Counted from the first letter of the stretch, positions 2,416 through 40,189 are shown. The stretch is DNA of 64,000 bases from Heptranchias perlo (GCF_035084215.1 NC_090340.1:14508001-14572000); one strand, 5' to 3'. Notes: generated by a model from the letters alone, not told the origin. Translations and numbers: made by a program.

Positions 2416-2466
2416 GTTTAACACTACTGAGTTCAGACAAGGCACAAAATGTTAACACAATGTTAA

Positions 2467-9066: not shown

Positions 9067-12000
9067 TTTTTTTTATTCGTTCATGGGATGTGGGTGTCAC
9101 TGGTGAGGCCAGCATTTATTGCCCATCCCTAATTGCCCTTGAGAAGGTGGTGGTGAGCCGCCTTCTTGAACCGCTGCAGCCCGTGTGGTAAAGGTTCTCC
9201 CACAGTGCTGTTAGGAAGGGAGTTCCAGGATTTTGACCCAGCGACGATGAAGGAACGGCGATATATTTCCAAGTCGGGATGGTCTGTGGCTTGGAGGGGA
9301 ACGTGCAGGTGGTGTTGTTCCCATGTGCCTGCTAGGTGGTAGAGGTCGCGGGTTTGGGAGGTGCTGTCGAATAAGCTGTGGATGGTACACACTGCAGCCA
9401 CAGTACGCTGGTGGTGGAGGGAGTGAATGTTTAGGGTGGTGGATGGGGTGCCAATCAAGCGGGCTGCTTTGTCCTGGATGGTGTCGAGCATCTTGAGTGT
9501 TGTTGGAGCTGCACTCATCCAAGCAAGTGGAGAGTATTCCATCACACTCCTAACTTGTGCCTTGTAGATGGTGGAAAGGCTTTGGGGAGTCAGGAGGTGA
9601 GTCACTCGCCACAGAATACCCAGCCTCTGACCTGCTCTTGTAGCCACAGTGTTTATGTGGCTGATCCAGTTAAGTTTCTCGTCAATGGTGACCTCCAGGA
9701 TGTTGATGGTGGGTGATTCGGCGATGGTATTGCGGTTGAATGTCAAGGGGAGGTGTTCAGACTCTCTCTTGTTGGAGATGGTCATTGCCTGGCACTTATC
9801 TGGCGCGAATGTTCCTTGCCACTTATCAGCCCTAGCCTGGATGTTGTCCAGGTCTCGCTGCATGCGGGCACGGACTGCTTCATTATCTGAGGGGTTCGAA
9901 TGCAACTGAACACAGTGCAATCATCAGTGAACATCCCCATTTCTGACCTTAAGATGGAGGGAAGGTCATTGTTGAAGCAGCTGAAGATGGTTGGGCCTAG
10001 GACGCTGCTCTGAGGAACTCCTGCAGCAATGTCCTGGGGCTGAGATGATTGGCCTCCAACAACCACTACCATCTTCCTTTGTGCTAGGTATGGCTCCAGC
10101 CACTGGAGAGTTTTCCCTGTCATTCCCATTGACTTCAATTTTACTAGTGCTCCTTGGTGCCACACTCGGTCAAATGCTGCCTTGATGTCAAGGGCAGTCA
10201 CTCTCACCTCACCTCTGGAATTCAGCTCTTTTGTCCATGTTTTGACCAAGGCTGTAATGAGGTCTGGAGCCGAGTGGTCCTGGTGGAACTCAAACTGAGC
10301 ATCGATGAGCAGGTTATTGGTGAGTAAGTGCCGCTTGATAGCACTGTCGACAACACCTTCCATCACTTTGCTGATGATTGAGAGTAGGCTGATGGGGCGG
10401 TAATTGGCCGGATTGGATTTGTCCTGCTTTTTGTGGACAGGACATACCTGGGCAATTTTCCACAATGTCGGGTAGATGCCAGTGTTGTAGCTGTACTGGA
10501 ACAGTTTGGCTAGAGGCGCGGCTAGTTCTGGAGCACAAGACTTCAGCACTACAGCCGGGATGTTGTCGGGGCCCATAGCCTTTGCTGTATCCAGTGCACT
10601 CAGCCGTTTCTTGATATCATGTGTAGTGAATCGAATTGGCTGAAGACTGGCTTCTGTGATGGTGGGGATATCGGGAGGAGGCCGAGATGGATCATCCACT
10701 CGGCACTTCTGGCTGAAGATGGTTGCAAACACATGCTGGACTCTGCCATCATTGAGTATGGGGATGTTTACAGAGCCTCCTCCTCCCGTTAGTTGTCTAA
10801 TTGTCCACCACCATTAACGACTGGATGTGGCAGGACTGCAGAGCTTTGATCTGATCCGTTGGTCGTGGAATCACTTAGCTCTGTCTATGGCATGTTGCTT
10901 CCGTTGTTTAGCATGCATGTAGTCCTGAGTTGTCGCTTCACCAGGTTGGCACCTCATTTTTAGGTACGCCTGGTGCTGCTTCTGGCATAATCATCTACAC
11001 TCCTCATTGAACCAGGGTTGATCCCCTGGCTTGTTGGTAATGGTAGAGAGAGGAATTGCCGGGCCATGAGGTTACAGATTGTGCTGGAATGCAATTCTGC
11101 TGCTGCTAATGGCCCACAGCGCCTCATGGATTCTCCAATTTTGTGCTGCTAGATCTTTTCTGAATCTATCCCATTTAGCACGGTGATAGTGCCACACAAC
11201 ACGACGGATGGTGTCCTCACTGCGAAGATGGGACTTCATCTCCACGAGGACTGTGCGGTGGTCACTCCTACCAATGCTGTCATGGACAGATGCATCTGCG
11301 ACAGGTAGATTGGTGAGGACGAGGTCAAGTCGGTTTTTCCCTCGTGTTGGTTCACTCACCACCTGCTGCAGGCCCAGTCTGGCAGTTATGTCCTTCAGGA
11401 CTCGGCCAGCTCGGTCAGCAGCGGTGCTACCGAGCCACTCTTGGTGATGGACATTGAAGTTCCCCACCCAGAGTACATTCTGTGCCCTTCCTACCCTCAG
11501 TGCTTCCTCCAAGTGGTGTTCAATATGGAGGAGGGCTGATTCATCAGCCGTGGGAGGGCGGTGGGTGGTAATCAGTGGGAGATTTCCTTGTCCCAGGTTT
11601 AACCTGATGTAATGAGATTTCATGGGGTCCAGAGTCAATGTTGAGGACTCCCAGGGCCACTCCCTCCTGACTGTTTATCACTGTAACACCACCTCTGGTC
11701 GGTCTGTCCTGCCGTTGGGACATGACCTACCCAGGGATGGTGATGGAAGAGTCTGGGACGTTGGCTGAAAGGTATGATTCTGTGAGTATGGCTATGTCAG
11801 GCTGTTGCTTAACTAATCTGTGGGACAGCTCTCCCAATTTTGGCACAAGTTCCCAGATGTTCGTGAGGAGGACCTTGCAGGGTCGACTGGGCTTGGTTTG
11901 CCTTTATCGTGTCTGGTCCCTAGTGGTCCGATGCTGGGTGGTCTGTCCGGTTTTATTCTTATGACTTTTTTTAAGTGAGATTTTACAACTTAGTAGCTTG

Positions 12001-18096: not shown

Positions 18097-18224
18097 CTTG
18101 AAAATCAAAATTTGGAATTAAACATTTCAGTATTGGAAATCCTTTGACTTAATTTGTGTTTTTATGTTTCATCTACACAAACTGTTCCTTTATATATATC
18201 AGCAACAATATCATGAAAGTAGGA

Positions 18225-19060
18225 CACTCGCCCACCACTATATCAATATTATTAGACTTACAAACACCCACCACTGTATCAATATCATTACACTCACAGA
18301 CACACCCAGCACTGCATCAATATCATTAGACTTACAAACACTCACCAATACATCAATATCATCACATCACAGATACACTCAGCACTGCATCAAAATCATT
18401 AGACTCAGACACACTCAGCACTACCTCAGTATAACTACACTCACAGACACACTCACCACTGCATCAAAATCATTAGACTCAGAACGCTCACCACTACATC
18501 AACATCATTACACTCACAGCCATATTCAACATTGCACCACTATCATTAGACTCAAACACACTCACCTCTCCATCAATATCACTAAACTCACAGACACACT
18601 CACCACTGCAACAATGTTTTTAGACTCAGACACACTCACCACTCCATCAATATCATAACACTCACAGACCCACTCACCACCACATCAATATCATCATACT
18701 CACAGACACACTTACCACTGCATCAATATCATTGGACTTACAGACACTGACCACAACATCAATATCATTACACTCAGACACTCAACTCTACATCAATATC
18801 ATTAAACTTACAGATACACTCTCCACCGCATCAATATGATTAGACTTCCAGACACCCACCACGACATCAATAACATTAGACTCACAGACACACTCACCAC
18901 TGCATCAATATTGTTACATTCAACGACACACTGACCACTGCATCAATGTCATTAGACTCACAGACACACTCATCACTGCATCACTGTCATTAAGCTCAGA
19001 CACACTCAGCACCACATCAATATAATTACACTCACTGACATACTCACCACTGCACTACAA
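18225..19060. repeat. ~36-38-bp minisatellite
   Basis: Unit ~actcaccactgcatcaatatcattagactcacagacac repeated roughly 20 times. Confidence 0.9.
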
Positions 19061-19062
19061 CA

Positions 19063-21114
19063 CTGCTCTATTTTACCACCCGCTATCGGGTGCGTTTCCT
19101 GCGGGGGGGCTCCGAAAATCGGAGAATCCCGGCGCGGTACCGGAGCCCACCCCGAACCCGCGCACTTCCAGGTTCCCGGCTGACGCGCCGTCGTGCGCGC
19201 GCAGCCCCCGTTGGTGGGAATCACGCAGGCAATTAAAGCCAGCGGGATGCCACTTGACAATATTTATTTCGGTATTTCAGGTCATTAACTGACCTGATTA
19301 AGGGACTATGTGGGATTTTGAACAAAATGGGACTGTTTCCCACACTGGGGGAAACACTCCCAGCTCGAATGGACGAGTTGCAACCGTCAGCCTGTGGCAG
19401 CTGCAAAGGTCCATTTGACAGGTGGGGGGGGGGGGGGTGGGGGAGACCCTCACTCATTGCAGGAGGCCACTCTGTCACTTGGGGCAAAGTTTGGCCTCCA
19501 CCACCCTCCTGACAGTCAAAGGCACCAACCTGTACACGTACCGCGGGGTCCGGAGACATGTACCTACCTTGCGGACCCCCTCAGATGTACATCTTGCGGA
19601 TGGGGGCCGCCGTAGCTGCAGTCATGACCTCCTCGGAGGGCGAACAGCATCACCAGCCTCACCAGCCTCGCCATCCATGCCGTCCACCTCTGACACGTGG
19701 AGCTCCACAACAGAGTGCTGTGACACATCCACCTGTACAGCAGGAGGGAGGGCTACCGCAGAGAGAGATGCGTCGCAGAGGGCACTACCCTCGCCACAGG
19801 GTCCACAGACCGAGGCTCAGCCTCCTGGACCTCTCTGAGCAGCAGTGCACACGGAGGCTCAGAGTCACTCGACATGTAGCCGTGGACATCTGCAGCCTCT
19901 TTCATGCCGAGCTGCTCCCGGCTGGCCCGAGCACCATCTTCTTACCTGTCGCTGTCAAAGTCATCACTGCCCTCCACAACTTCTCCTCCGCATCCTTCCA
20001 GGGTGCAACCAGGGACATCGCCGATGTCTCTCAGTCGTCTGCGCAGAAGAGCCCTGCAAATACACCTACACCCACTCTGCAGTGACACAATGGGTGGCAT
20101 CCGTGGTGGGTCCTCATAGTGATACCCAGGAGCAGGCAATATTGCACAAACCAGACAGGATTCGCGAAGACATGGTGGTAGTGGTGCCAATATAATGTGT
20201 GATGTGAGTTGTTCTGAAATTCAATTTAAGTAACATCCATGACAAACCCTCAAACACCCTTGTGCATCCCCTTCATGCTCACGACACGTTTGCCTTACGC
20301 TGCCTACTGCACATATGTGATGCATGCCCTGTGGCTGCAGCACAGGTTGTGGCAGGTTGAGTGAGGCTGGCCGTGAGAGAGGTGCACAAGAGGGTGAGTA
20401 TGGGATAGAGCCATGAGATTGTATGAGGATTGGGTTGCGTGGTAGTGGCGGGGTGAGTACTGGCGAGGTGAGTAGGTGCAGGTAAGATGAGGATGAGGTT
20501 TGAGTGGGTATGAGGGGTGATGTGACAGAGTAGTGTTGGCAGTGCCGAAGGAGATGTGGGGTGGGGGCAGTGCTGTGGCAGACGGAGTGTAGGGGAAAGA
20601 CTACGTGTACTCACTGTGGCTGACCTACTGAGGTCATTGGTGCACCTCCTGCACTGTATGCAGGTTGGCGATATGTTGGTGGTGCAAGTGACCTCCTCTG
20701 CCACCTCGAGCCAGGCCTTCCTGGTGGCAGAGGCGGGCCGCTTCCTCCCGCCCACCGGGTGGAAGATCTCTGTCCTCCTCCTCCTCCTCACCCCATGTAT
20801 TGATACCTGGGGTGAGGCATCATTAAACTGGGAGCAGCCTTCCCCCTGGGATGCTCCATGTGGTCATCTTTGCTATTGGTTGCAGCATCTGTCAGTGGAG
20901 GACTGCCCCTTTAAATAGAGCGCCTCCAGCTGACAGATCTTACTGCGCATGCGCAGATCAGCAGCGGGGAACCCAGAGGAGCAGGTAAGTGGATCCAATT
21001 AGTGGTTTGCCTGCTATGATCGCGCGGGAAACCCACTAATTTTACCGGGCGCGTTACTCACGCGCCCGATAGCCCACCCGCCAAGAACCCGCAGCCCTGC
21101 TAACATCGGGCCCC
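19063..21114. mobile_element. internally deleted PIF/Harbinger DNA transposon
   Basis: + ORF 19558..20085 resembles a HARBI1-type transposase N-terminus (LSEQQCTRRLR, LPVAVKVITAL, SFQGATRDIADVSQSSA); convergent minus ORF 20279..20791 is Myb/SANT-like (RKAWLEVAEEV..QCRRCTNDL); imperfect TIRs. Confidence 0.8.
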
Positions 21115-22549
21115 AGGTTTCAGAGGAGCGAGACTGGGAATGAAATATTTCTGGTTTAAAAATTTTCATGAGAGAAACAAATGCATGAATTGCAACAATT
21201 ATACATTTCTATCTGGAGCAAATACACAAAAGGAAAAGCGGCCCAACCATGACTAACAAAAGAAATTAAGGATAGTATTAGATCCAAAGAGGAGTCATAT
21301 AAAGTTGCCAGAAAAAGTAGCAAGCCTGAAGATTGGAAGCAGTTTAGAATTCAGCAAAAAAGGACCAAGAGATTGATTAAGAGGGGAAAAATAGAGTATG
21401 AGATTAAACTTGCAAGGAACATAAAAGTGGACTGTAAAAGCTTCTACAAGTATGTAAAAAGAAAAAGATTAGTGAAGACAAATGTAGGTCCCTTACACTC
21501 AGAAACGGGAGAATTTATAATGGGGAACGGGGAAATGGCAGAGCAATTAAACAAATACTTTGGTTCTGTCTTCACGGAAGAGGACACAAATAACTTCCCA
21601 GAAATCTTAGGAACCAAGGGACTAGTGAGAAGGAGGAATTAAAGGAAATTAGTATTCATAAAAAAAGTGCTGGAGAAATTAATGGGACTGAAAGCCGATA
21701 AATCCGATAAAGGGCCTGATAATCTGCATCCCAGAGAACTAAAAGAGGTAGCCATGGAAATAGTGGATGCATTAGTTGTCATCTTCCAAAATTCTATAGA
21801 TTATGGAACAGTTCCTGCAGATTGGAGGGTGGCAAATGTAAACCCACTATTTAAAAAAGGAGGGAGAAAGAAAACAGGGAACGACAGACAGGTTAGCCTA
21901 ACATCAGTAGTAGGGAAAATGCGAGAGTCTATTATAAAGGATGTGATAACAGGACATTTAGAAAATATCAATGGGATTAGACAAAGTCAACATGGATTTA
22001 TGAAAGGGAAATCATGTCTGAGAAACCTACTGGAGTTTTTTGAGAATGTAACTGGTAGAATAGATAAGGGAGAACCAGTGGATGTGGTTTATTTGGATTT
22101 TCAGAAGGCCTTTGATAAAGCCCCACATAAGAGGCTAGTGTGCAAAATTAAAGCACATGGGATTGGTGGTAATATACTGGCATGGATTGAAAATTGGTTA
22201 ACAGACAGGAAACAGAGAGTAGGAATAAATGGGTCTTTTTCGGGGTGGCAGGTGGTGACTAATGGGGTACAGCAGGGATCAGTGCTTGGGCCCCAGCTAT
22301 TCACAATATATATCAATGATTTGGATGAGGGAACCAAACATAATATTTCCAAGTTTGCTGACGACACAAAACTCGGTGAGATCGTGAGTTGTGAGGAGGA
22401 TGCAAAGAGGCTTCAAGGCGATTTAGACAAGTTGAGTGAGTGGGCAAATACATGGCAGATGCAGTATAATGTGGATAAATGTGAAGTTATCCACTTCGGA
22501 AGGAAAAACAGAAAGGCAGAGTATTATTTAAAATGTTGATGTACAAAAG

Positions 22550-22781
22550 TAAACAATTTTACAACACCAAGTTATAGTCCAGCAATTTTATTTTAAATTC
22601 ACAAGCTTTCGGAGGCTACCTCCTTCCTCAGGTGAACGATGTGGAACAGATTCCTCACCTGAGGAAGGAGGTAGCCTCCGAAAGCTTGTGAATTTAAAAT
22701 AAAATTGCTGGACTATAACTTTCTGTTGTAAAATTGTTTACAATTGTCAACCCCAGTCCATCACCGGCATCTCCACATCAC
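22550..22781 (+). mobile_element. Penelope-like fold-back insertion A with hammerhead motifs on both strands
   Basis: Arms 22549-22635 and 22655-22741; 12-bp TSD gatgtacaaaag at 22538-22549 and 22782-22793; 3' tail ccccagtccatcaccggcatctccacatca. Confidence 0.85.
22655..22691 (+). ncRNA. minimal type I hammerhead ribozyme motif
   Basis: tcac CTGAGGA a ggag-gtagc-ctcc GAAA gc tt gtga: stem I tcac/gtga, stem II ggag/ctcc, loopless palindromic stem III; mirror copy on the minus strand at 22599-22635. Confidence 0.75.
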
Positions 22782-24379
22782 GATGTACAAAAGGACCTGG
22801 GTGTCCTTGTACACCAGTCACTGAAAGCAAATGTGCAGGTGCAGGAAGCAGTTACGAAGGCAAATGGTATGTTGGCCTTCATTGCAAGAGGATTTGAGTA
22901 TAGGAGCAAGGATGTGTTACTACAGTTATACAGGGCCTTGGTGAGACCACACCTGGAGTATTGTGTGCAGTTTTGGTCTCCTTACCTAAGAAAGGATATA
23001 CTTGCCAGAGAGGGAGTGCAGCGAAGGTTCACCAGACCGATTCCTGGGATGGCAGGACTGTCGTATGAGGAGAGATTGGGTCAACTCGGCCTGTATTCAC
23101 TTGAGTTTAGAAGGATTAGAGGGGATCTCATTGAAACATATAAAATTCTGACAGTTCAAGACAGACTGGATGCAGGGAGGATGTTTCCCCTGGCTTGGGG
23201 GTCCAGAACATGGGGTCACAGTCTCAGGATACGGGGTAGGACATTTAGGACTGAGATGAGGAGAAATTTCTTCACTCAGATGGTGGTGAACCTGTGGAAT
23301 TCTCGACCACAGAAGGCTGTGGAGGCCAAGTCACTGAATATATTTAAGAAGGAGATAGATAGATTTCTAGGCACAAAAGGCATCAAGGGGTATGGGGGGA
23401 GAGCAGGAATATGGTATTGAGATAGAGGATCAGCCATGATCATATTGAATGGCGGAGCAGGCTCGAAGGGCCGAATGGCCTACTCCTGCTCCTATTTTCT
23501 ATGTTTCCATAAAAAGGAATAAGAGGGTAAGGGAGGCAGTATTAATGAAGGGCACAGCCTTAGAAAGAATAGTTTTTCTCAACGGTGGTGCTCAGGCCGA
23601 GTCTGTCGAATTTAAATTAAGAAATAATAATGGATTTGTCACCATATTGAGGAACCTTATAGATCACCCCATCGGGTAAAAAATGATCATGAGATTAGTG
23701 GGTAATTTATGATGGGCACTTAAACTATCCTAAGGAGGTGCGGGGGAACACAAATATTTGTGGTCGAAATACAGAGGGTTTCTTAGGTTGCAACCAGGAT
23801 TGTTTCTTAGTATGTTACTAGTTCCAACAAGGATAGTTGTAGTGCTGGGTCTTGTTCTGGGCAGTGAAGGAAGACAAGTAATTGACCTGGAGGTAGGAGC
23901 CTCGCCGTGTAGGAAAACATAATGGGAATCCGGGTGTGTTTCTCCGATTTACTGTCCAGTCATTTTAATGGACCAAAACCCATTGATAGCGCATGCTCAA
24001 GCGTCTGATATACACTCCTCGCTGGTAAGATTCTCCATTGGAAGCAGGTACTCTGGAATTAACCCCCTGGGATCAAAAGATGTGGGTAGAGAATGGGCTT
24101 GGTTCAGAAAGCAAAGAGTGGGTTTAAATACATGTTTCTTTGGACTGGCTGGTTGTGGATATGCACATGTACTTCTCCGCCTTACTACTTCCTTCCTTGT
24201 CTTCAGAAACATCCTTAAGACCTTCCTCTTTGACCGTGTTCTCCCCCTCCAGACTTTCACCGTTTCTCTCCTCTACCATCACCCCACTCAAGCCCCCTCA
24301 ATATTGACCATGCTGTAAAGCGTTCTGTGTAATTAGCACTGTAAGAATGTACATTTCTGATGTATGGGCACAAGAAGAA

Positions 24380-25845: not shown

Positions 25846-26352
25846 GTAAAGTTACCACCAGAAGAACTAAGAGAGAAGTTAAAAGATATTTTCTTACATA
25901 GATGGTGATGAGGACATTGAATATCTTACCGCAAGTGATACAATAACAACATTGAAACCAAAAATGGTTAAGTATTTGGATGTTACGAAAACGAAAATGA
26001 AAGGGTAGAGGAAAAGGGAAGGGAAGAGTTGTTTGGCATGAAGAGGGAGCTCTGGCACAGACGCAACAGTCTGATCTATGTCCTGCTGTGCTACAATTTC
26101 AATAATTATGTGAATCAGCCGCAACGCCCTGAGGTTATGGAGTGAGATATCAACTAGAATTGCGCTCTTAATCCCTGTTGGAAATTGTGCAGCTGATGAT
26201 GTCTGCTCCAGTCACTATCAAGGCTACAACATGAAGAAAGGCCATTTGGGTAAGCTTGCGAACTGCCAGAGACAACAGCTTGAGGGAGAAAATTGGATCA
26301 ATAAATACACATTGTTGCATTAGTTTACTAAGTTAATAAACCATTGTCTTAC

Positions 26353-26478
26353 CTTCAAAGCAAATTGATTTTGCGTGGTCTACAAGGATACCCATCAGCA
26401 CCAGAATTGCTAATAAGCCCACGAAAAGCTGAAGAACCACCTGGGGTTTGATTCCATAACTGTGGTCTAAAGCTAGAT
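26353..26478 (-). CDS. IgSF receptor TM exon: DLALDHSYGIKPQVVLQLFVGLLAILVLMGILVDHAKSICFE
   Basis: Acceptor gcaattttag, donor gtaaga; 126 nt, phase 1-1; ~21-aa hydrophobic stretch. Confidence 0.8.
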
Positions 26479-26541
26479 CTAAAATTGCAATTACAAGCAA
26501 TAAGTTATTCAGCCTTGAACGTACTTTTCTTCATTAACACT

Positions 26542-27570
26542 ACATAAGAACACAAGAAAAAGGAGCAGCAGTAGGCCATATGGCCTCTCGAGCTTGCTCA
26601 ACCATTCAATCAGATCATGGCTGATCTTCTACCTCAACTCCACTTTCCCGCCCGATCCCCATATCTCTTGATTCCCCTAGAGTCCAAAAATGTATCTATC
26701 TCAGCCTTTAATATACTCAATGACTCAGCATTCACAGCCCTCTGGGGTAAAGAATTCCAAAGATTCACCACCCTCTCAGTGAAGAAATTCCTCCTCATCT
26801 TAAATGGCCGACCTCTTATCCTGCGACTATGCCCCCTAGTTCTAGACTCTCCAGCCAGGGGAAACAACCTCTAAGCACCTACCCTGTCAAGCCCCCTCCG
26901 AATCTTATAAGTTTCAATGAGATCACCTGTCGTTCTTCTAAACTCCAGAGAATATAGGCCCATTCTACTCAAACTCTCCTCATAGGACAACCCTCTCATC
27001 CCAGGAATTAATCTAGTGAACATTCATTGCACCACCTCTACGGCAAGTATATCCTTCCTTAGATAAGGAGACCAAAACTGTATGCAATACTCCAGGTGAG
27101 GTCTCACCAAAGCCCTGTACAATTGTAGTAAGACTTCCTTACTTTTGTACTCCAACCCACTTGCAATAAAGGCCAACATGCCATTTGCTTTCCTAATTGC
27201 TTGCTGTACCTGCACTCCAACATTTTTGTGCTTCTAGTACGAGGAAACCCAAGTTGCTCTGAGCACCAACATTTACTACTGTCTCAATATTTAAAAAATA
27301 TTCTGTTTTTCTATTCTTCCTACCAAAGTGAATAACCTCACATTTCTGCACTTAATTCTCCATCTTCCACCTTCTTGCCCATTCGCTTAACCTGTCTATA
27401 TCCCTTTGCAGACTCTCTGTGTCCTCCTCACTGCTTACTTTCCCACCTAGCTTTGTATGGTCAGCAAACTTGGATACATTACACTCGGGCCCTTCATCTA
27501 AGTCATTAATACAGATTGTATATAGCTGAGGCCCAAGCACCGATCCCAGCGGCTCCCCACTAGTTACATT
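26542..27570 (-). mobile_element. 5'-truncated CR1 LINE
   Basis: ORFs 27352, 27024 and 26634 carry RT motifs; cataagaacacaagaa tail. Confidence 0.9.
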
Positions 27571-27743
27571 ATGTGTATTCCGGTGAGTGCGTTATTAAAC
27601 ATTCCACATGCCCACACTCGGGATATCTGCGCTCGCTTGCCTGCTTATATTCATTACAACATTTTATTCCATGATTTAATAATTGATTTTATTACACCCT
27701 ATTATTTGAATGTGTAGTCACTCCCCGATACAATAACACTTAC

Positions 27744-28003
27744 CGTACGCAACAGGTTGGGATCCAATTCCATCTGCCAGTTTTATTTTGATGTCTCATT
27801 CTTCAATGAAACACTCCGGAGATTGGGACGCAGTGGTCAAAGGAGCACTTTCCCTTTTTTCACTTTTTGGTTGGTTATTCTGGATTACTCGTCTCACCTT
27901 TGTAACTACAGAATTACACCGCGTGACCATCAATTCTGTCTTCCAGGAGACAGCGCCGTGCACACATGGGCACAGAGACCCTGGACCTGGTCAATTTTAA
28001 AGT
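27744..28003 (-). pseudogene. decayed second V-domain exon in the C1-TM intron
   Basis: SGVFH*RMRHQNK then a frameshift to LADGIGSQPVAY G|gtaagt aligns with SGIYLCSAVRQGKIGENGNGSRLTVY G|gtaagt of the intact V; second Cys is TGA (27803-27805). Confidence 0.65.
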
Positions 28004-28746
28004 TTGAAGAAGGCGAAGGGAACGTCCGCTTCCTCAAAACACTAAAGCGACTCTACTGAAAGTTTATAAACTGCCCGCGAGGTACAAGGGAATATGGGAG
28101 CACTTTAAATCGGCTTCACGCAGAACGGAATACGGTCTCCCGCAGCCAGTCTCGTTTTTATTTGGAGTCACACTGAGGCCTGCCTTTACAGTTGTGCAAC
28201 ACTGGGCCGGACCCAAATGTAACAGGACAACAGAAGACAACATAAAGTGGCGACTGAGCTCATATTTTCAGTCGGGGTTGTCCACAAGGTTAGTTTCTGA
28301 TCCATTCACAATGAATCGCCCAACGGAGGTCGGGATCAGGGGCTGTAGTGGGAGAGAGTCGACAGCAGCCAACCTAAACGCAGCTCCTCATGATGGTGCT
28401 CTTTAAGGAGACCAAATAATGGGAAAGAACAAAATCGGTCTGACAAGAGGACAACTTTGAATGTTTTCTGATGAGCGACAGAGGATTAATAATTGGATAC
28501 AAGAGATAAAGCTCCTGCTTAACATTTTGGAAGTTGTCGAGGTTTAACAGACAGTTTCTGGGTGGACGACGATAATATTACTTCCGGTTTTACAACAGAT
28601 TTGGGTCAATAATATTTGACAATAAAACATGAATTTTCCTTTTATTTGGTGTTATAACATGTTTATCAATATGAACAAATTCTATGATATACCCTTTCAG
28701 GATTTAACAGTAACTGACCTCACTTATTGTACTGTTGTCCTCTTAC

Positions 28747-29058
28747 CTGGGTTGGAATTGGTTACAGCGTACGTGACAATGCCGGGAGCCTGGAGGGAGA
28801 TATGAGATACCAAACAGATGTAAACAGTCCCGCTCGGGACACGCTGCCTCTCTTCCAAAGAGCTGGAAATTTCAAACAGTCCCTCAGTGTTTTGCCGTTT
28901 AGTGATATTTATCGCAGTTACAGTTTCGACGCTATTTTTATACCAGGTGAGGGTGAAATCCTCCGGGTGAAATGCAGCAGTCTCACACACAATAGTCAGA
29001 GGCGCTGATGATTTTCTCTCGGGTGCCACGGAGACAATCTTCAGTGGAGTTGGGGCAG
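28747..29058 (-). CDS. IgSF receptor C1-set exon
   Basis: Acceptor ttctgttctgcag, donor gtaaga; 312 nt, phase 1-1; TIVCETAAFHPEDFTLTWYKN, NTEGLFEISSSL and YICLVSH (YxCxVxH signature). Confidence 0.92.
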
Positions 29059-29542
29059 CTGCAGAACAGAAATGGGGAAAATCAGGTTACAGGAGCGATT
29101 TTAAATGTGACTTCGACCTGTATTCGATGCCTTTATTGTAGCCGTACCATTCCACCCTTCTGCCCTTTTAAATGTTTCCCTGATCATTTACACTCTCTCC
29201 ATCCATACCACGAGTCACTATCAGATTCTGTTCAGTTTTACCTCCGCATATATTTTCTTATTGTTCACTCATAGATTTTAGATTATTCCCTGATAATTCC
29301 AACCTTCAAACAGCCACATCACATGAGTCTGGATAAATGATTGTGTTTCATATTTTAATGAATGGAACAAGTTAATCCTGGGAGAAGACCAGTGCTCGGA
29401 GTCCCTCCCTGTTTGTCAGTCACTGTCGCTCTGTCTCCCCAGGAGAGAAGCGGATGATCTGTAGATTACCGAGAATAAAAGGAGCGACCTAACGGACCGA
29501 TCTCACAGCCGGAGCAGGGGAATAGCTGAGGGAAATAGCTGA

Positions 29543-30911
29543 GGTATGTCCTGTCCACAAAAAGCAGGACAAATCCAATCCGGCCAATTACCACCCCATC
29601 AGTCTACTCTCAATCATCAGCAAAGTGATGGAAGGTGTCGTCGACAGTGCTTTCAAGCGGCATTTACTCACCGATGCTCAGTTTGGATTCCGCCAGGACC
29701 ACTAGGCTCCAGACCTCATTACAGCCTTGGTCCAAACATGGACTGAATTCCAGAGGTGAGAGTAACTGTCCTTGACATCAGGGCAGCATTTGACCGAGTG
29801 TGGCACCAAGGAGCCCTAGTAAAATTGAAGTCAATGGGAATCAGGGGGAAAACTCTCCAGTGGCTGGAGTCATACCTAGCACAAAGGAATATGGTAGTGG
29901 TTGTTGGAGGCCAATCATATCAGCCCCAGGACATTGTTGCACGAGTTCCTCAGGGCAGTGTCCTAGGCCCAACCATTTTCAGCTGCTTCATCAATGATCT
30001 TCCCTCCATCATAAGGTCAGAAATGGGGATGTTTGCTGATGATTGCACAGTGTTCAGTTCCATTCGCAACCCCTCAAATAATGAAGCAGTCCGAGCCCGC
30101 ATGCAGCAAGACCTGGACAACATCCAGGCTTGGGCTCATAAGTGGCAAGTAACATTCACGCCAGACAAGTGCCAGGCAACAACAATCTCCAACAAGAGAG
30201 AATCTAACCACCTCCCCTTGACATTCAACGGCATTACCATCGCCGAATCCCCAGCAACATCCCGGGGGTCACCATTGACCAGAAACTTAACTGGACCAGC
30301 CATATAAATACTGTGGCTACAAGAGCAGGTCAGAGGCTGGGTATTCTGCGGCGAGTGACTCACCTCCTGACTCCCCAAAGCCTTTCCACCATCTACAAGG
30401 CACCAGTCAGGAGTGTGATGGAATACTCTCCACTTGCCTGGATGAGTGCAGCTCCAACGACACTCAAGAAGCTCGACTCCATCCAGGACAAAGCAGCCCG
30501 CTTGATTGGCACCCCATCCACAACCCTAAATATTCACTCCCACCACCGGCGCACTGTGGCTGCAGTGTGCACCATCCACAGGATGCACTGTAGCAACTCA
30601 CCAAGGCTTCTTCGACAGCACCTCCCAAACCCGTGACCTCTACCACCTAGAAGGACAAGAGCAGCAGGCACATGGGAACAACACCACCTGCACTCACTAC
30701 CCCGACTTGGAAATATATCGCCGTTCCTTCATTGTCGCTGGGTCAAAATCCTGGAGCTCCCTTCCTAACAGCGCTGTGGGAGAACCTTCACCACAAGGAC
30801 TGCAGCATTTCAAGAAGGCGGCTCACTACCACCTTCTCAAGGGCAATTAGGGATGGGCAATAAATGCTGGCTCGCCAGTGACGCCCACATCCCATGAACG
30901 AAGAAAAAAAA
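29543..30911 (+). mobile_element. 5'-truncated family B LINE in the V-C1 intron, antisense to the gene
   Basis: ORF 29756..30307 has LDIRAAFDRVWH and MFADDC; tail cccatgaacgaagaaaaaaaa. Confidence 0.92.
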
Positions 30912-31426
30912 TACATTTGCTTCAACCTCAGAAGGCATCAGCAACGGAGCCTCTGGGGAAAATTGCCTTTATTGGAGGCAAAAGAGGTGACGACATTATG
31001 ATTCATGGTCCAGTTTTCTCAGTGAATGATTCATTTCAGGAGAGAATGTTAAACCTCACGGAGAACGACAGAGGCAAACAGAACATCTAAAATGGGGTAC
31101 TGGCCCTGTATATGGTGGGAGAGGCGCATTAATATAAAATATTTTCAGTTATATCGGGATTTTTGCCGCAACTTCCATCATCAGAAGTCTGATGTAGAAA
31201 CTACATGTTGAGATGATTCCAGTAACATGTTACTTACTCTCGTCAATAGTGATGGATTTTACACAACTCAGCAAAGGAAGCGTCATATTGAGCCGTGTAA
31301 TTAACAGTTGTTCACAGAGAACGCGGAGTAACACTGAATTTCACTGTAAATATATTAATATAATTATTTTATGCAAAAAATGGTACAATACAACAATGAC
31401 AAACATGCTCCTTGTTACACACTTAC

Positions 31427-31741
31427 CATACACAGTTAAACGTGATCCGTTTCCATTTTCACCAATTTTTCCCTGACGAACCGCTGAGCAGAGATAGATT
31501 CCAGAGTCCTGGTACGTCACGCTATTCAGAGTGAAGCTGCTTCCATTATCTTCCACACCAGTTGTTTTTATGTAATCGGCCTCTGACTTCAGGTATTTGT
31601 TCTCACCCTGTTTCCACCAGTACACTTTTACCATTTCTACCACTGATAAGGAGACTTTGCAATGGAAGGTGACGTTTGTCCCGCTGAGTACAACCCTTTT
31701 TGGGGGAATTTGACTCACTGAGAACGAAAGATGATCAGCGG
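31427..31741 (-). CDS. IgSF receptor V-set exon with in-exon J-like strand
   Basis: Acceptor tctattttctggcag, donor gtaagt; 315 nt, phase 1-1; FSVSQIP..NVTFHC..VYWWKQG..DSGIYLC..GNGSRLTV. Confidence 0.93.
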
Positions 31742-31904
31742 CTGCCAGAAAATAGATTCAAAGTCAGGTTAATTGCATCTGATATGACATGGAAATAATA
31801 AAATAAACATAGATACACGAATTACATTTCACTGACTGTAAGTAGAAACTACTTCAGATACATTTGCGTTATTGGAGCAGCCGGGTCACAGAATAAACCG
31901 GTAC

Positions 31905-31959
31905 CTGTGTAAATAATCCCAGGGACAGAGAGACACAGTAGAACAATACACGCCAACAT
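31905..31959 (-). CDS. IgSF receptor leader exon MLACIVLLCLSVPGIIYT
   Basis: ATG at 31959-31957; hydrophobic signal peptide; phase 1 donor ACAG|gtac; 163-nt intron to the V exon. Confidence 0.85.
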
Positions 31960-32842
31960 TCTGAGCAAAAGATCACTGACTGCACTGTCAGCCGCTGTAA
32001 GAAAGGTTTGCGGATTGTTTAATCTGGAATGTATCGCAATGACGTTTGACATCCTGCCCCTGTGGGTTCAGAAAATGGGTTCGGTGAGATTCAATGAGAT
32101 TTGCTGACGATTTTTGTTCTAAGCGGCCACTGGAATGACCAGTGTCACAGACATCAAAGAGTAAGGAAAATTAGCATCTGAATTTCAAATGAACAATGTA
32201 CCATCAATTGGTGGGACATGTCTTATTTCCCTATAGATTATGATGTGAGAATACAAATCATCAGTGCAAGCTCCTTGGGGTGAATTACGTGAGACATTTT
32301 CAACTTGCTGCTTGGACATAATACAATGGCAGCGGTTCGACAGCCCCTTTATAGAAAACGCCCGATTCCCATTTCTGTTGAAAACGATGAAAACAAAATC
32401 GAGGGGTTTCTATTATTGGCATCTCCAGTTTTTTACGGTCGGGCGGCAAGTCCAAAATGCGCCCCTGAGCGGTGAATTACTCCACCAGTTGAACGAGCCA
32501 GGCTTCGTTCATGTAGTCCCAGCGGGAGGGCCAGTCAAATTTGCAGGCCAGGCTTCACTTGTATCGGAATGGCAGCCCAACAGCAGTTGTTGGAGCGGCC
32601 CAGGACAACTCGCCAGGCCGCCGCAATATCAGGGAACCCGTCGGGTGTCCAGGCCGTAGAAGGTAGGTTAGTTGGCGGGGGAGCGGTGTTTGGAGGAGAG
32701 CACTGGAGCAGCAGCAACTCAGACTCGAATTTTTGAAGACTAGGAGGAGCATTCCTGGTCTTCCCGGCCCAACCAATATAAAAAGGAACTGACCTTGGGA
32801 TCATCTTCTGCCGGGCCCAACTGCTACTGGCCAGAGATTCAG

Positions 32843-33224: not shown

Positions 33225-34897
33225 GGACGTTGCCCGTACGAGCCCGAGGAGTCCAAGTCCATGGAGGTAATTTCAACCTCACTGCCTGGGGTTGCTCTTA
33301 GTTTTATGTGATTGTGTAAAAACTGGTGAAGTCAACGGACATAAAAAGGGGGAGTGATGTAAATGGGCTGCCGATTAACGATCACCCGTTTTACACTATC
33401 GCACGTAGTTAAAATCTACCCCCTGAGCTGTAAACGGGTGGAGCAGATCGCCCACCTGATGTAGAACCTACTGGATTTTCATCCCATTAAAATCAATGGA
33501 ATAAAAATCGGCGGGTTCTACAGAGAGGGGAGGGGGTGGGAGTGAGTGATCTTCTCCGGCAGTTTATCGCCCAAGAAGTGAAGGTGAAAATTACCCCCGT
33601 GTCATTCAATCTGCAGTGGTGATACTCATGTGAGTTGGAGGATAACAAAAGAAAGCAAGGACTAGAACATTTCACATTCTCAGCACGTCCCAAATTACCC
33701 CACAGGCGATTAATTACCTTGAACTGTAGTGAGTATTGTTTTATGGGCGGTGGTTAAAGCAGAACAAATCCCACAAATAGTAAATCAGAAAAATGAGCAG
33801 ATTGTCTGATTTGTTGGTGTTCTTTCAGATACTAGTATTGGTTACAGAATCAAAACTGGTAGACAGCAGATAAACATAGCAACCTAGAAATTGGGCCGCG
33901 AACATTTTTGGCCTGGGTTGGGGGTGTGGTGGTTTGGCGGGCATAGTTCGCGGTCGGTATTGGGCATGGATCGGAGGTCGTGGCCTGTATCTGGGATCAG
34001 GGTAGGGGATCAGGAGTCGGGCCTGGAATGATGCCGATGTGGGGTCTGGAGCAGAGGCGATTGGGCGGGGCAGAGTCGGAAGCGGCGCCAATGTAGGGGG
34101 CTTGAGAGCAGTGGTTGTGGGGGGTCGGGAGCTGCGTGGATGGAGGGGCCAGGAGCGACCATCAGAGCTTTTAATGGGTGGTCAGAAGGATCATGCCTGC
34201 TCCTTCCGGCTCCACATTGAGATGAGTTACTGACCTTTGTATGTGCAAAGGCAATTACGGCTGTTTCAAACATGGGTAAAGCACGCCTCATCTTTCTCCT
34301 GATCCCATAAGGTTGGCGCGTACTTGCTGACCAAAATGTGCACAGTTCCTGCCCGCCACATTGCGGCCTTAGTAGTCCGAGCAGTGCGTAAAAAATGGGA
34401 CCAATTTGTAGTCAGCGAGATTGAAATTAGAAGACACATGTATTGGGGAAATATCCATCATTTGCCTATCATGGTCAGATGCATTGTCTTTCACTGTCAT
34501 TTCATATTTTCACACCTTTCCTTGGAGAATAGCGTGAATAATTGGAAGGATTCACAAGCTGATCAACAGTCTGAGAGACCACAAGGTGATCGCTCCTTCT
34601 ATGGGCATAAACATCTTCATACCAATGGATAGGTTGGTTAACCCAGAATTTACAACAGGATTCTTGTGTCTAGTGGGTGTCAGTGCTGTCCGTCCTGGTC
34701 CTTTGTTTCTCTGGGAGGCCACAAAACCCTCCTACCGCAGGCAGGATTGCTACCATTAAGCAAAATGCTCGCTCCGCATTGCGGATGTAACACAGAAATA
34801 GCAGAGTTTTTTTTTATAAAGTCTGGATATTAATGAACTTCAAACACAATAGATATTTATAATTCTTTCAATAGAGCTTTCGCAATAAGTCACATCT

Positions 34898-35314: not shown

Positions 35315-38170
35315 TCATGTCCAATTTCCTGCCCGCTCCCCATAACCCCTAATTCCCTTTACTTCTAGGAAACTGTCTATTTCTGTTTTAAATTTATCTA
35401 ATGATGTAGCTTCCACAGCTTCCTGGGGCAGCAAATTCCACAGACCTACCACCCTCTGAGTGAAGAAGTTTCTCCTCATCTCAGTTTTGAAAGAGCAGCC
35501 CCTTATTCTAAGATTATGCCCCCTAGTTCTAGTTTCACCCATCTTTGGGAACATCCTTACTGCATCCACCCGATCAAGACCCTTCACAATCTTATATGTT
35601 TCAATAAGATCGCCTCTCATTCTTCTGAACTCCAATGAGTAGAGTCCCAATCTACTCAACCTCTCCTCATATGTCCGCCCCCTCATCCCCGGGATTAACC
35701 GAGTGAGCCTTCTTTGTACTGCCTCGAGAGCAAGTATGTCTTTTCTTAAGTATGGAGACCAAAACTGTATGCAGTATTCCAGGTGCGGTCTCACCAATAC
35801 CTTATATAACTGCAGCAATACCTCCTTGTTTTTATATTCTATCCCCCTAGCAATAAAAGCCAACATTCCGTTGGCTTTCTTGATCACCTGCTGCACCTGC
35901 ATACTAACTTTTTGATTTTCTTGCACTAGGACCCCCAGATCCCTTTGTACTGCAGTACTTTCCAGTCTCTCGCCATTAAGAAAATAACTTGCTCTCTGAT
36001 TTTTCCTGCCAAAGTGCATAACCTCACATTTTCCAATATTATATTGCATCTGCCAAATCTCCGCCCACTCACCCAGCCTGTCTATATCCCCTTGCAGGTT
36101 TTTTATGTCCTCCTCACTCTCTACTTTCCCTCCCATCTTTGTATCATCTGCAAATTTTGATATGTTGCACTCGGTCCCCTCCTCCAAATCGTTAATATAG
36201 ATTGTAAAGAGTTGGGGACCCAGCACCGACCCCTGTGGAACACCACTGGTTACTGGTTGCCAGTCCGAAAATGAACCATTTATCCCAACTCTCTGCTTCC
36301 TGTTCGATAACCAATCCTCCACCCATGCCAGAATATTACCCCCAATCCCGTGATTTTTTATCTTAAGTAATAATCTTTTATGTGGCACCTTGTCGAATGC
36401 CTTCTGGAAGTCTAAATACACTACGTCCACTGGTTCCCCTTTATCCACCCTATACGTTATATCCTCGAAGAACTCAAGCAAATTTGTCAGACATGACTTC
36501 CCCTTCATAAAGCCATGCTGACTTTGTCCTATTAAATTATGCTTATCTAAATGTTCCGTTACTGTCTCCTTAATAATAGACTCCAAAATTTTACCCACCA
36601 CAGATGTTAAGCTAACTGGCCTATAATTTCCAGCCTTCTGCCTACTACCCTTTTTAAATAACGGTGTTACATTAGCAGTTTTCCAATCTGCCGGGACCTC
36701 TCCTGAGTCCAGGGAATTTTGGAAAACTATCACCAAAGCATCCACAATCCCTACTGCCACTTCCCTCAAGACCCTAGGATGGAAGCCATCAGGTCCAGGG
36801 GATTTATCCGCCTTGAGTCCCATTATTTTACTGAGTACCATCTCCTGAGTGATTTTAATCGTATTTAGCTCCTCCCCCCCGAGAGTCCCCTGTTTGTCCA
36901 GTGTTGGGATATTCTTAGTGTCCTCTACTGTAAAGACTGAAACAAAATATTTGTTCAGCATTTTTGCCATCTCCATGTTTCCCACCATTAATTTCCCGGT
37001 CTCATCCTCTAAGGGACCTATGTTTGCCTTAGCCACCCTTTTTCTTTTTATATAACTATAGAAACTCTTGCTATCTGTTTTTATATTTTTTGCTAATTTC
37101 TTTTCATAATCTAACTTCCCTTTCTTAATCAATCCTTTAGTTACTTTTTGCTGTCTTTTGAAGAATTCCCAATCTTCTATCCTCCCACTAAGTTTGGCTA
37201 CCTTATATGTCCTTGTTTTTAGTCGGATACTATCCTTGATTTCTTTACTTAGCCACGGGTGGCTGTCATTTCTTTTACACCCTTTTTTCCTCAGTGGAAT
37301 ATATTTATTTTGAAAGTTGTAAAATAACTCCCTAAATGAACACCACTGCTCATGTACCGTCTTACCCTTTAATCTATTTTCCCAGTCCACTTTAATCAAT
37401 TCCGCTCTCATACCATCATAGTCTCCTTTATTCAAGCTCAGTACGCTTGTTTGAGAATCAACCTTCTCACCCTCTAATTGGATATGGAATTCAACCATGT
37501 TGTGGTCGCTCGTTCCAAGGGGATCCTTAACTAGGACATTATTAATTAATCCTGACTCATTACACAGGACCAGGTCCAAGGTTGCCTGCCCCCTTGTAGG
37601 ATCAGTTACATACTGCTCAAGAAATCCATCCCTGATGCACTCAATGAACTCGTCCTCAAGGCTGCTCTGCCCAATTTGATTTGTCCAGTTAATATGATAA
37701 TTAAAATCCCCCATAATTATGGCTGTTCCCTTATTACATGCCCCGACTATCTCCTGATTAATACTTCTTCCAGCAGAGTTGCAACTATTAGGAGGCCTAT
37801 ATACTACGCCCACTAATGTTTTTTTTCCCTTATTATTCCTTATCTCCACCCAAACTGTTTCATTATCTTGATGCTTTGTCCCAATATCATTTCTCTGTAT
37901 TACAGTGATTCCTTCCTTTATTAACATAGCCACCCCACCTCCCCTTCCTTCCTGCCTGTCCTTCCTGATTGTTAAATACCCTGGCATATTTAATTCCCAG
38001 TCGTTGTCACCCTGCAGCCATGTTTCTGTAATGGCCACAAGATCATACCCATACGTAGTTATTTGTGCCGTTAACTCGTCCATTTTATTACGAATGCTAC
38101 GTGCATTCAGATAAAGAACTTTCAAATCTGTTTTGTGACGCTTAGTTCCTGCTTTTTCCTTTTTTAACAC
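35315..38170 (-). CDS. CR1 ORF2p (APE endonuclease and reverse transcriptase), 951 aa
   Basis: YLNARSIRNK, ITETWL, YRPP, MGDFN, TSDH; YRPVSLTS, YLDFQKAFDKV, GVPQGSVLGP, FADDTK. Confidence 0.95.
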   Translation of the reverse strand: MLKKEKAGTKRHKTDLKVLYLNARSIRNKMDELTAQITTYGYDLVAITETWLQGDNDWELNMPGYLTIRKDRQEGRGGGVAMLIKEGITVIQRNDIGTKHQDNETVWVEIRNNKGKKTLVGVVYRPPNSCNSAGRSINQEIVGACNKGTAIIMGDFNYHINWTNQIGQSSLEDEFIECIRDGFLEQYVTDPTRGQATLDLVLCNESGLINNVLVKDPLGTSDHNMVEFHIQLEGEKVDSQTSVLSLNKGDYDGMRAELIKVDWENRLKGKTVHEQWCSFRELFYNFQNKYIPLRKKGCKRNDSHPWLSKEIKDSIRLKTRTYKVAKLSGRIEDWEFFKRQQKVTKGLIKKGKLDYEKKLAKNIKTDSKSFYSYIKRKRVAKANIGPLEDETGKLMVGNMEMAKMLNKYFVSVFTVEDTKNIPTLDKQGTLGGEELNTIKITQEMVLSKIMGLKADKSPGPDGFHPRVLREVAVGIVDALVIVFQNSLDSGEVPADWKTANVTPLFKKGSRQKAGNYRPVSLTSVVGKILESIIKETVTEHLDKHNLIGQSQHGFMKGKSCLTNLLEFFEDITYRVDKGEPVDVVYLDFQKAFDKVPHKRLLLKIKNHGIGGNILAWVEDWLSNRKQRVGINGSFSDWQPVTSGVPQGSVLGPQLFTIYINDLEEGTECNISKFADDTKMGGKVESEEDIKNLQGDIDRLGEWAEIWQMQYNIGKCEVMHFGRKNQRASYFLNGERLESTAVQRDLGVLVQENQKVSMQVQQVIKKANGMLAFIARGIEYKNKEVLLQLYKVLVRPHLEYCIQFWSPYLRKDILALEAVQRRLTRLIPGMRGRTYEERLSRLGLYSLEFRRMRGDLIETYKIVKGLDRVDAVRMFPKMGETRTRGHNLRIRGCSFKTEMRRNFFTQRVVGLWNLLPQEAVEATSLDKFKTEIDSFLEVKGIRGYGERAGNWT

Positions 38171-38253
38171 TTTACCTATTACTCCATACCTTCTGTCCCT
38201 TCCTGTTACGCTTTCCTCTCTCTCCCTGCTCAGGTTCCCAACCCCCTGCCACT

Positions 38254-39189
38254 TTAGTTTAAACCCTCCCCAACAGCACTAGCAAACACTCCTCCTAGGA
38301 CAGCGGTCCCGGCCCTGCCCAGGTGCAGACCGTCCGGTTTGTACTGGTCCCACCTCCCCCAGAACCGTTTCCAGTGTCCCAGGAATTTGAATCCCTCCCC
38401 CTTGCACCATTCCTCTAGCCACGTATTCATTTGAAATATCCTCCTATTTCTACTCTGACTAGCACGTGGCACTGGCAGCAATCCTGAGATTACTACCTTT
38501 GAGGTCCTATTTTTTAATTTACCTCCTAACTCCCTATATTCTGCTTTTAGGACCTCATCCCCTTTTTTACCTATATCGTTGGTGCCTATGTGCACCACGA
38601 CAGCTGGCTGTTCGCCCTCCCCCTCCAAAATGTTCTGTAGCCGCTCCGAGACATCCTTGATCCTTGCACCAGGGAGGCAACACACCATCCTGGAGTCTCG
38701 GTTGCGGCCGCAGAAACGCCTGTCTATTCCCCTTACAATTGAGTCCCCTATCACTATAGCTCTGCCACTCTTTTTCCTCCCAGCCTGTGCAGCAGAGCTA
38801 CCCGTGGTGCCAGGAAGTTGGCTGCTGCTGCCTTCCCCTGATAAGTCATCCCCCCCAACAGCATCCAAAGTGGCATATCTGTTTGAGAGGGGGATGGACA
38901 CAGGGGACCCCTGCACTACCTGCCTGCATCTCTTACTCTTCCTGGTGGTCACCCATTCACTTCCTGCCTGTACACCCTTTACCTGCGGTGTGACCAACTC
39001 GCTAAACGTGCTATCCACGAGTTTCTCTGCATCGCGGATGCTCCACAGTGAGTCCACCCGCAGCTCCAGCTCCGAGATACGATCGGTCAGTAGCTGCAGG
39101 TGGACACACTTCCCGCACACATGGTCGGCAGGGACACTGGTAGTGTCCATGACTTCCCACATCTTGCAGGAGGAGCATATCACGAGCAT
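38254..39189 (-). CDS. CR1 ORF1p (zinc finger, coiled coil, SGNH esterase-like domain)
   Basis: CSSCKMWE..HVCGKC; VIGDSIVRG, HIGTND and DGLHL; probable ATG at 39189. Confidence 0.9.
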   Translation of the reverse strand: MLVICSSCKMWEVMDTTSVPADHVCGKCVHLQLLTDRISELELRVDSLWSIRDAEKLVDSTFSELVTPQVKGVQAGSEWVTTRKSKRCRQVVQGSPVSIPLSNRYATLDAVGGDDLSGEGSSSQLPGTTGSSAAQAGRKKSGRAIVIGDSIVRGIDRRFCGRNRDSRMVCCLPGARIKDVSERLQNILEGEGEQPAVVVHIGTNDIGKKGDEVLKAEYRELGGKLKNRTSKVVISGLLPVPRASQSRNRRIFQMNTWLEEWCKGEGFKFLGHWKRFWGRWDQYKPDGLHLGRAGTAVLGGVFASAVGEGLN

Positions 39190-39226
39190 ATCACATAAGA
39201 CAGATGAAAGGCTTATACACTCACAA

Positions 39227-39712
39227 CGGGGCACTGCTCCAGAGGCTCTATTTACTGTGCTCCATGACAGGGCACTGCTCCAGAGGCTCTATTTACTGTG
39301 CTCCATGACGGGGCACTGCTCCAGAGGCTCTATTTACTGTGCTCCATGACGAGGCACTGCTCCAGAGACTCTATTTACTGTGCTCCATGACGGGGCACTG
39401 CTCCAGAGGCTCTATTTACTGTGCTCCATGACGGGGCACTGCTCCAGAGGCTCTATTTACTGTGCTCCATGACGGGGCACTGCTCCAGAGGCTCTATTTA
39501 CTGTGCTCCATGACGGGGCACTGCTCCAGAGGCTCTATTTACTGTGCTCCATGACAGGTCACTGCTCCAGAGGCTCTATTTACTACTGTAAATGATGGGC
39601 CGTTGATCTTGGGGCTATATTTACTGGTCTCCACGAAGGGGTGCTGCTTCAGAGGTTATTACTGTTCACCATGACGAGCCACTGCTCCTGAGGCTGCGTT
39701 TACTGTTCTCCA
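39227..39712. repeat. 41-bp minisatellite
   Basis: cggggcactgctccagaggctctatttactgtgctccatga, ~9 near-identical units followed by degenerate units. Confidence 0.93.
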
Positions 39713-40189
39713 ACTTATAAGAACCTTTATTGACTTGAGGAGTATATAGAGTATTTAATCATAAATGTAAACCTTCCTCTATCACTGGGACAGAAAATGT
39801 TCATATTGCAGGGAAGTAGGAGGCAGGTTTTATGAACATTATGTAAGCAGTATTGGTGGGACTGTGTTGTTTGGTAGTGTTGGGATGGAGCCACTGGAGT
39901 TTAGGACAGAAGGCCATAGAACATGGGAGCATATGAGGTTTGAGACGTTGGGAGATCTTGGGGGCTGGCTGTTTGGATGTAGAAGCAATGGGAGGGGTGA
40001 CTGTGATGTTTGTAAGCACTGCGAAGGGGATACCAGGTTCTGTTGGGAGGGGCACAATCTCCCGAGAGCGTCACAGAATGTTTTGTTTTCGTGCGCACGG
40101 GTGTCAAAGCAAAACCAGGCTTCTATTACCTCAGTATATATCACAGTGGGTAAACTGAGTTTGTAATTATTCATCTTTTAACTTAATGC

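Follow-up and report, generated by a model that had tools for sequence, protein, structure and literature searches.

Short inverted insertions with minimal hammerhead motifs in Heptranchias perlo and their likely origin from a Penelope-like retrotransposon

Gene and repeat content of the locus

The window analyzed here, a stretch of 64,000 nt of Heptranchias perlo DNA (GCF_035084215.1 NC_090340.1:14508001-14572000), contains an immunoglobulin-superfamily (IgSF) gene on the minus strand at positions 26150-31990. Its leader (near 31980), V exon (from about 31741), C1 exon (29059-28746), and transmembrane exon (26479-26352) all lie on this strand, and the predicted tail is short. A candidate terminal exon, also on the minus strand, starts at 26279, 73 nt after the transmembrane exon; it has a pyrimidine-rich acceptor and reaches a stop after 41 codons. 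An earlier note on this DNA placed the first of the insertions described below, copy A, in the putative last intron of the gene. Such a position is not established, as the candidate terminal exon is located upstream of copy A; if this exon is used, copy A would lie 3.4 kb beyond the coding part.

The window also contains several classes of repeats. Large minisatellite arrays with 32/63-bp and 36-38-bp units occupy positions 848-5952 and 18190-19117, the first of them being interrupted at about 2488-3789 by an L1/Tx1-type fragment with a zf-RVT domain. An apparently intact CR1-type LINE on the minus strand (35315-39288) encodes a 344-aa ORF1 with a GDSL esterase domain and an open 987-aa ORF2 with APE endonuclease and reverse transcriptase (RT), and is preceded by a 41-bp tandem array at about 39144-39717. 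Another LINE family (RVT_1) is represented by three copies (9067-11402, 29753-30871, and 52027-54426), whose 91-95% similarity points to recent LINE activity. In addition, a CPEB3/HDV-like ribozyme match was obtained on the minus strand at 34544-34618 with a sub-threshold score (28.2 bits versus the gathering cut-off of 35). P2-type pairing is present in this match, P1 pairs poorly, and the position of the catalytic C is filled by U; it is possibly a decayed motif or a chance similarity.

Four related insertions and their hammerhead motifs

Four related insertions had been reported to start at 22550, 45962, 57898, and 60164 (copies A, B, C, and D, respectively), and these coordinates proved to be exact. 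Each copy has its own target site duplication (TSD), as had also been proposed, of 12 bp in A, B, and D and of 11 bp in C; a flanking direct repeat of at least 11 bp was found in just 1 of 1500 random pseudo-insertions. The TSDs are biased toward A/T (36 of 47 letters, p 0.0015), a bias that is not significant when copy B is set aside (24 of 35, p 0.066). The units are 96-356 nt long, contain no ORF, and together comprise seven arms, and no further relatives were detected in the window using nhmmer. Three of the four copies (A, B, and D) consist of two arms inverted head-to-head, only one of which bears a tail; copy C is not inverted. The shared tail, previously described as being of about 40 nt, is indeed present, but its length varies (40 nt in A, about 35 nt in B, and 36 nt in D).

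Copy A is enclosed by TSDs at 22538-22549 and 22782-22793. Its inverted tail-less arm on the minus strand (22550-22654) contains a complete minimal hammerhead motif with C3 at 22631 and a predicted cut between 22603 and 22602, and extends at most 23 nt 5' of C3. The main arm on the plus strand (22655-22741) has another complete motif with C3 at 22659 and a predicted cut between 22687 and 22688, bears two private changes at 22722-22723, and is the only arm that continues into the tail (22742-22781, plus strand). In copy B, located between TSDs at 45950-45961 (all A/T) and 46168-46179, the main arm occupies the minus strand at 45962-46082, including the tail at about 45962-45996, and starts at hammerhead U4; the inverted tail-less arm on the plus strand (46080-46167) carries a complete motif with C3 at 46084, and the two arms overlap by 3 nt of microhomology. 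Copy C (TSDs at 57887-57897 and 57994-58004) is a single plus-strand arm with a tail (57898-57993) that begins inside the hammerhead GAAA, 6-8 nt 5' of the predicted cut. Copy D (TSDs at 60152-60163 and 60520-60531) consists of a main arm on the minus strand (60164-60361) and an inverted tail-less arm on the plus strand (60362-60519, C3 at 60434). The main arm includes the tail at 60164-60199, the end of which falls over an ATG (60168-60166), a complete motif with C3 at 60289, and 72 nt of upstream sequence beyond the motif. Together the arms of D form a loop-less perfect palindrome of 324 nt (60200-60523). Overlaps of 1-3 nt are observed at the unit centers and junctions.

Copies A and B both interrupt ORF2 of a CR1-type LINE (recognized in A by Pfam RVT_1). 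An empty site corresponding to copy B, with the target present once and a gap of 0, was identified in both CR1 paralogues that span the two flanks. The CR1 host of copy A shows a gap of 16-18 nt about 6 nt to the left of the TSD (22532-22537) in comparison with all five paralogues; it has thus lost a short piece, and the empty site is not clean. No paralogue of the C and D flanks was found within the window.

Over the 100 nt shared by all copies, C and D are 100% identical, A is 98% identical to them (2 positions differ), and B 90-92% (8-10 positions). The arms of D are identical at 324 of 324 positions, and those of B match at 170 of 174 positions, the center included. Arm-to-arm differences amount to two adjacent positions in A and one position in B, N7, which is part of a CpG; they may represent later mutation. 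The identity of C to D and of the two arms of D indicates that the family is young, in agreement with the suggestion of a recently mobile lineage.

A descriptor scan of the window revealed five complete hammerhead motifs (both strands of A, the plus strand of B, and both strands of D); no motif was found in any of 40 order-2 Markov control windows. The scan bears out the claim that three insertions carry the series stem I-CUGANGA-stem II-GAAA-GC-UU-stem I. In full, the layout is helix I, CUGANGA, an extra A before stem II, a 5-bp helix II with a 3-nt loop, GAAA, GC, UU, and helix I. The sequences ascribed earlier to loop II (gtagc/ataat/aaaat) do vary, but they comprise the 3-nt loop together with the fifth base pair of helix II, which is G-C in A and A-U in B and D; a C-G form of this pair occurs in a loose contig end of the public run X5 (see below). 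Position N7, noted as G or C, is G in A and D and C in the plus arm of B, and is also U in the minus arm of B. The G-U-compatible stem changes with a retained core were recovered as well. Helix I has two such changes, and helix II, with one two-sided change (G-C/A-U) and one one-sided change (A-U/G-U), is 100% paired in a count of seven rows that come from only four insertions and include some flank letters. The presence of a ribozyme motif on each strand holds for A and D but not for C, which has the 3' half only, or for B, whose tail-bearing arm starts at U4 without C3 and stem I and which therefore has the full motif on one strand only.

The observed motif fits the minimal consensus of metazoan Penelope-like elements (PLEs), CUGANGAH / G..C / GAAAN-palindrome-NUH (Cervera and de la Pena 2014, PMC4209133); the extra base after A9, G10.1-C11.1, and the palindrome at positions 15.2-16.2 all agree with it. 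Metazoan PLE hammerheads share with ours CUGANGA plus the extra base, the G10.1-C11.1 pair, the absence of loop 3, the palindromic AAGCUU helix III, a short helix I, and an AU-rich 3' side; helix II of the present copies differs in having 5 bp and a 3-nt loop. The painted-turtle motif in the supplement has the same GAAA-G-C-U-U half, and the occurrence of two minimal hammerheads on opposite strands, at distances of 100-700 bp, had been reported by 2014 (PMC4209133). No shark entry was found in the two supplementary files of this paper that were searched. A scan of the window with Rfam models yielded no hammerhead family match at E<=1, which is expected for a motif without helix III and is no evidence either way; microRNA hairpin models matched these hairpins with scores below the gathering cut-offs.

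The near-perfect inverted arms, the TSDs, and the loop-less perfect palindrome of copy D might alternatively reflect a DNA transposon of the MITE or fold-back type that has terminal inverted repeats, or an artefact created by palindromic reads during assembly; in either case the match to the hammerhead would be incidental. However, the inverted repeat of the insertions is not terminal, with 35-40 nt extra on one side, the TSDs vary in length and sequence, C has no inversion, and the centers differ among copies. An artefact of reads would not be expected to leave arms that differ at two (A) and one (B) positions, and an incidental match is opposed by the 40 motif-free controls and by stem changes that keep the pairing. 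These explanations are thus disfavored, and we regard them as highly improbable.

Predicted folding places the hammerhead at a disadvantage in the complete units. In single arms, helix II forms with a predicted probability of 0.61-0.96, and for intermolecular pairing via the palindromic helix III the predicted energy is -6.5 kcal/mol. When the complete fold-back is transcribed, the arms are predicted to pair with each other; a forced hammerhead fold costs 50-69 kcal/mol, and the hammerhead helices have near-zero predicted probability in five of five cases. The hairpins are therefore unlikely to be working ribozymes according to these models: the fold-back structure is predicted to bury the ribozyme instead of switching it on, and the motif on both strands of A and D is likely a by-product. 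A possible pseudoknot, composed of two crossing 6-bp helices around an inner hairpin, was noticed at the putative RT start sites (22703-22783 on the plus strand and 60164-60244 on the minus strand). It would be formed by the pLTR end and the tail. Its helix a (6 bp) is invariant among copies, helix b (6 bp) shows one G-U to G-C change and is broken in A by the two private changes, and the inner hairpin has one compensatory change. The folding z-scores of this part are only -1.2 to -1.6, and the inner hairpin pairs less well in the loose ends from other organisms; the predicted pseudoknot is a lead only.

Relatives in public contigs and the search for a parent element

The tail-bearing half of copy D (301 bp) was compared with contigs of the public runs X1, X19, X5, and X7 from three organisms. 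The runs were picked via a CR1-rich stretch around copy A, and shares of 0.05-0.3 in other organisms were left out. The 301-bp stretch is hit by 25,512 contigs in X1, 3,610 in X19, 1,654 in X5, and 468 in X7, numbers that refer to contigs only, the depth being no copy number. Cover starts abruptly at the tail end and drops steadily toward the 5' side. Loose ends of X1 contigs pile up at the tail end (62, 87, and 42 contigs at 60166, 60167, and 60168, respectively), and the flanks beyond them are unrelated (agreement 0.37-0.38 in X1). The family is very abundant and young, and its sharp 3' end, random flanks, and falling 5' cover are as expected for 5'-truncated units of pLTR plus tail. Past the center of D, 20 X1 and 3 X19 contigs run on with one sequence (agreement 1.0), hence longer copies exist. 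At position 60290, 104 X1 and 25 X5 contigs continue as in A and B, not as in D, which shows that there are subfamilies.

Partial tandems are seen at several contig joints, and five of these fall at 60210-60215, close to the inner end. One X19 contig joins 60290 to 60162, which corresponds to a 129-nt head-to-tail unit from the hammerhead start to the tail end and could be a genomic tandem or a circle. The X19 contigs cover the unit; this run is taken as RNA by guess, its contigs carry no end or strand information, and the cover is not counted as a sign of expression. Such a unit starting at the hammerhead, together with the above contigs that leave the D sequence at 60290, would agree with a free-standing, pLTR-derived non-autonomous element of about 130 nt, either a non-LTR retrozyme or SINE-like, that spreads by tandem or circular transcripts, dimeric hammerhead cutting, and a PLE protein acting in trans. 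Retrozymes form direct tandem arrays of 50-970-nt units with mostly canonical motifs (Cervera and de la Pena 2020, PMC7229834; Li et al. 2026, bioRxiv 10.64898/2026.07.22.740005); they are pLTR relatives, are present in a chondrichthyan (bioRxiv 10.64898/2026.07.22.740005), and resemble our insertions in being ORF-less and hammerhead-bearing. Unlike them, the copies in the window are dispersed, inverted, and bounded by TSDs. None of the four is a direct tandem, no arm begins at the cut site, and D has 72 nt of additional upstream sequence, with the contigs showing that its parent extends further. The head-to-tail joint was seen in one contig of one run, which may be DNA, and partial tandems are normal for PLEs. 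We therefore find a free-standing element of this kind quite unlikely.

The tail-end ATG is templated. Of the contigs that end at 60166 or 60167, 62 of 149 in X1, 28 of 57 in X5, and 13 of 23 in X7 reach its G, more often than expected by chance, which suggests that the ORF of the putative parent may start at this ATG. Shark Penelope ORFs are known that start after such a tail. All three frames between the hammerhead and the tail end are closed by stops, and there is no ATG at stem II.

The parent element itself was sought in several ways. A six-frame scan of the window for PLE-type RT or GIY-YIG motifs gave no credible match and one spurious one, and Pfam analysis of 13 of the 87 listed ORFs detected only Ig, CR1/L2-type RT, APE endonuclease, GDSL, and zf-RVT domains. 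Among the loose ends listed, none continues beyond the tail into a single conserved sequence or into an RT plus GIY-YIG ORF. Neither the tail nor the cut-site region was matched when contigs from metagenomes, viruses, and prokaryotes were scanned for these patterns. No protein of longer or similar length shared the 40-residue frame that ends the tail, a weak test with a frame that runs into the D flank. Literature searches with a 13-mer of the tail matched only unrelated papers, and within the part of the literature covered, no paper was found on the motif of this family or on a two-cDNA model of PLE inversions; the family may well be already catalogued in repeat databases such as Repbase or Dfam.

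Membership in Penelope-like elements nevertheless appears likely on the strength of sequence features. The Penelope-like lineage proposed in the earlier note is supported by the hammerhead consensus, the one-sided tail of 35-40 nt, the inverted 5' copy, the TSDs of 11-12 bp, and the recent activity. PLEs are present in all vertebrate lineages (PMC4350176). The signature described for EN+ PLEs consists of a 30-40-bp tail at one end and an adjacent inverted 5'-truncated copy, with the TSD enclosing the entire unit (Arkhipova et al. 2013, PMC3846280; Craig et al. 2021, PMC8557442). Our copies share with these units the head-to-head inversion, the tail on one arm, a junction palindrome or short overlap, and strong 5' truncation, and the TSDs are of similar size (8-10 bp in the described units, 11-12 bp here); they differ in being only 96-356 nt long and ORF-less. 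Published work on Penelope-like elements thus already covers minimal hammerheads, tails, and inverted copies, and the family assignment is ordinary.

Origin of the inverted units

A biochemical reference is PAc, a Poseidon element of Anolis carolinensis, whose purified protein cuts and extends both strands, prefers AT-rich DNA, and begins reverse transcription at two positions within the RNA, which mark the limits of the tail (Frangieh et al. 2024, PMC11167929). The PAc protein is modeled as a dimer, its template is uncleaved RNA, and cleavage by the PAc hammerhead requires the protein. Lack of cleavage, which the earlier note proposed as part of a refutation, is therefore too strict a ground for rejecting the assignment. 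The insertions resemble PAc in having two 3' end classes about one tail apart, a likely uncleaved template, and AT-rich targets and, by eye only, in a C-rich stretch and a helix joining the pLTR end to the tail. In contrast, the PAc ORF begins at stem II and runs through the tail, whereas here the frames are closed, with the tail end, 93 nt 3' of the cut, providing the first likely start codon.

Taken together, it is probable that the insertions represent the 5'-truncated terminal repeat and tail of an EN+ Penelope-like retrotransposon, with the hairpin formed from two cDNAs joined head-to-head. Under this scheme, a GIY-YIG nuclease would nick both strands 11-12 nt apart in AT-rich DNA and so give rise to the TSD; the duplications are observed, and we infer the nicking from the family. 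RT would then initiate internally on the RNA, at the tail end and at the pLTR end, which are separated by about 36-45 nt. The arms indeed fall into two 3' end classes, one at the tail end and the other at the pLTR end, 36-45 nt inside, and the start of RT at these sites is modeled on PAc. Synthesis would stop early, for a cause that is conjectural. The start of every one of the seven arms lies 5' of the predicted cut, mostly near the 5' border of the hammerhead; in five cases it falls inside the core or no more than about 25 nt from C3. The template was thus likely uncleaved RNA. Finally, the cDNA ends may anneal over 1-3 nt of microhomology, and repair would fix an inverted unit with the tail on one arm; C would be an example of the simple stump that is left when a single cDNA is retained. 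The hammerhead would belong to the parent RNA and be a passenger in the stumps.

The same Penelope-like origin could also produce hairpins in another way, if one cDNA (or an antisense template) folds back on a micro-palindrome and copies itself, and a nuclease then trims one tail. Fold-back has been proposed for head-to-head PLE palindromes (PMC3846280), as has tail formation by endonuclease resolution (PMC8557442). In agreement with it, the center of B is a TCA-CC-TGA micro-palindrome, and the arms of D end at the same base. The polarity of the centers argues in the other direction. In B, and likely in A, the tail-less arm extends further 5' than the tail-bearing arm. Two bases in the center of B read correctly only on the tail-less arm, so that a tail-primed cDNA could not supply the loop, and the 23-nt center of A fits the tail-less arm better (helix I of 6 bp versus 4 bp). 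These centers favor two cDNAs over a snap-back, an argument drawn from two asymmetric units, of which A is uncertain; the symmetric D fits a snap-back or a hairpin-capped intermediate equally well. Self-priming is, moreover, sterically poor with a 2-nt loop, as in B, or with no loop, as in D. Self-copying of one cDNA is accordingly a possible but doubtful alternative to the joining of two.

A bolder version of the two-cDNA scheme, which at present we would call unlikely, holds that the minimal hammerhead mainly pairs RNAs and is not a cutter. Two RNAs would be joined via the palindromic helix III in a dimeric RT-nuclease particle, each protein would prime one target strand from one of two start sites set by a pseudoknotted fold of the pLTR end and tail, the RTs would stall at the paired hammerheads, and the cDNAs would fuse head-to-head. 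If this were true, the fold-back stumps would be direct records of two-RNA twin priming, and some units should hold arms from different source copies.

For a family as young and abundant as this one, the junctions of thousands of short units could be used to test the origin of the inverted copy and the tail, and the same junctions could test the role of the weakly active PLE hammerhead. It is also likely that such perfect hairpins give rise to false microRNA calls and, if transcribed, to double-stranded RNA.
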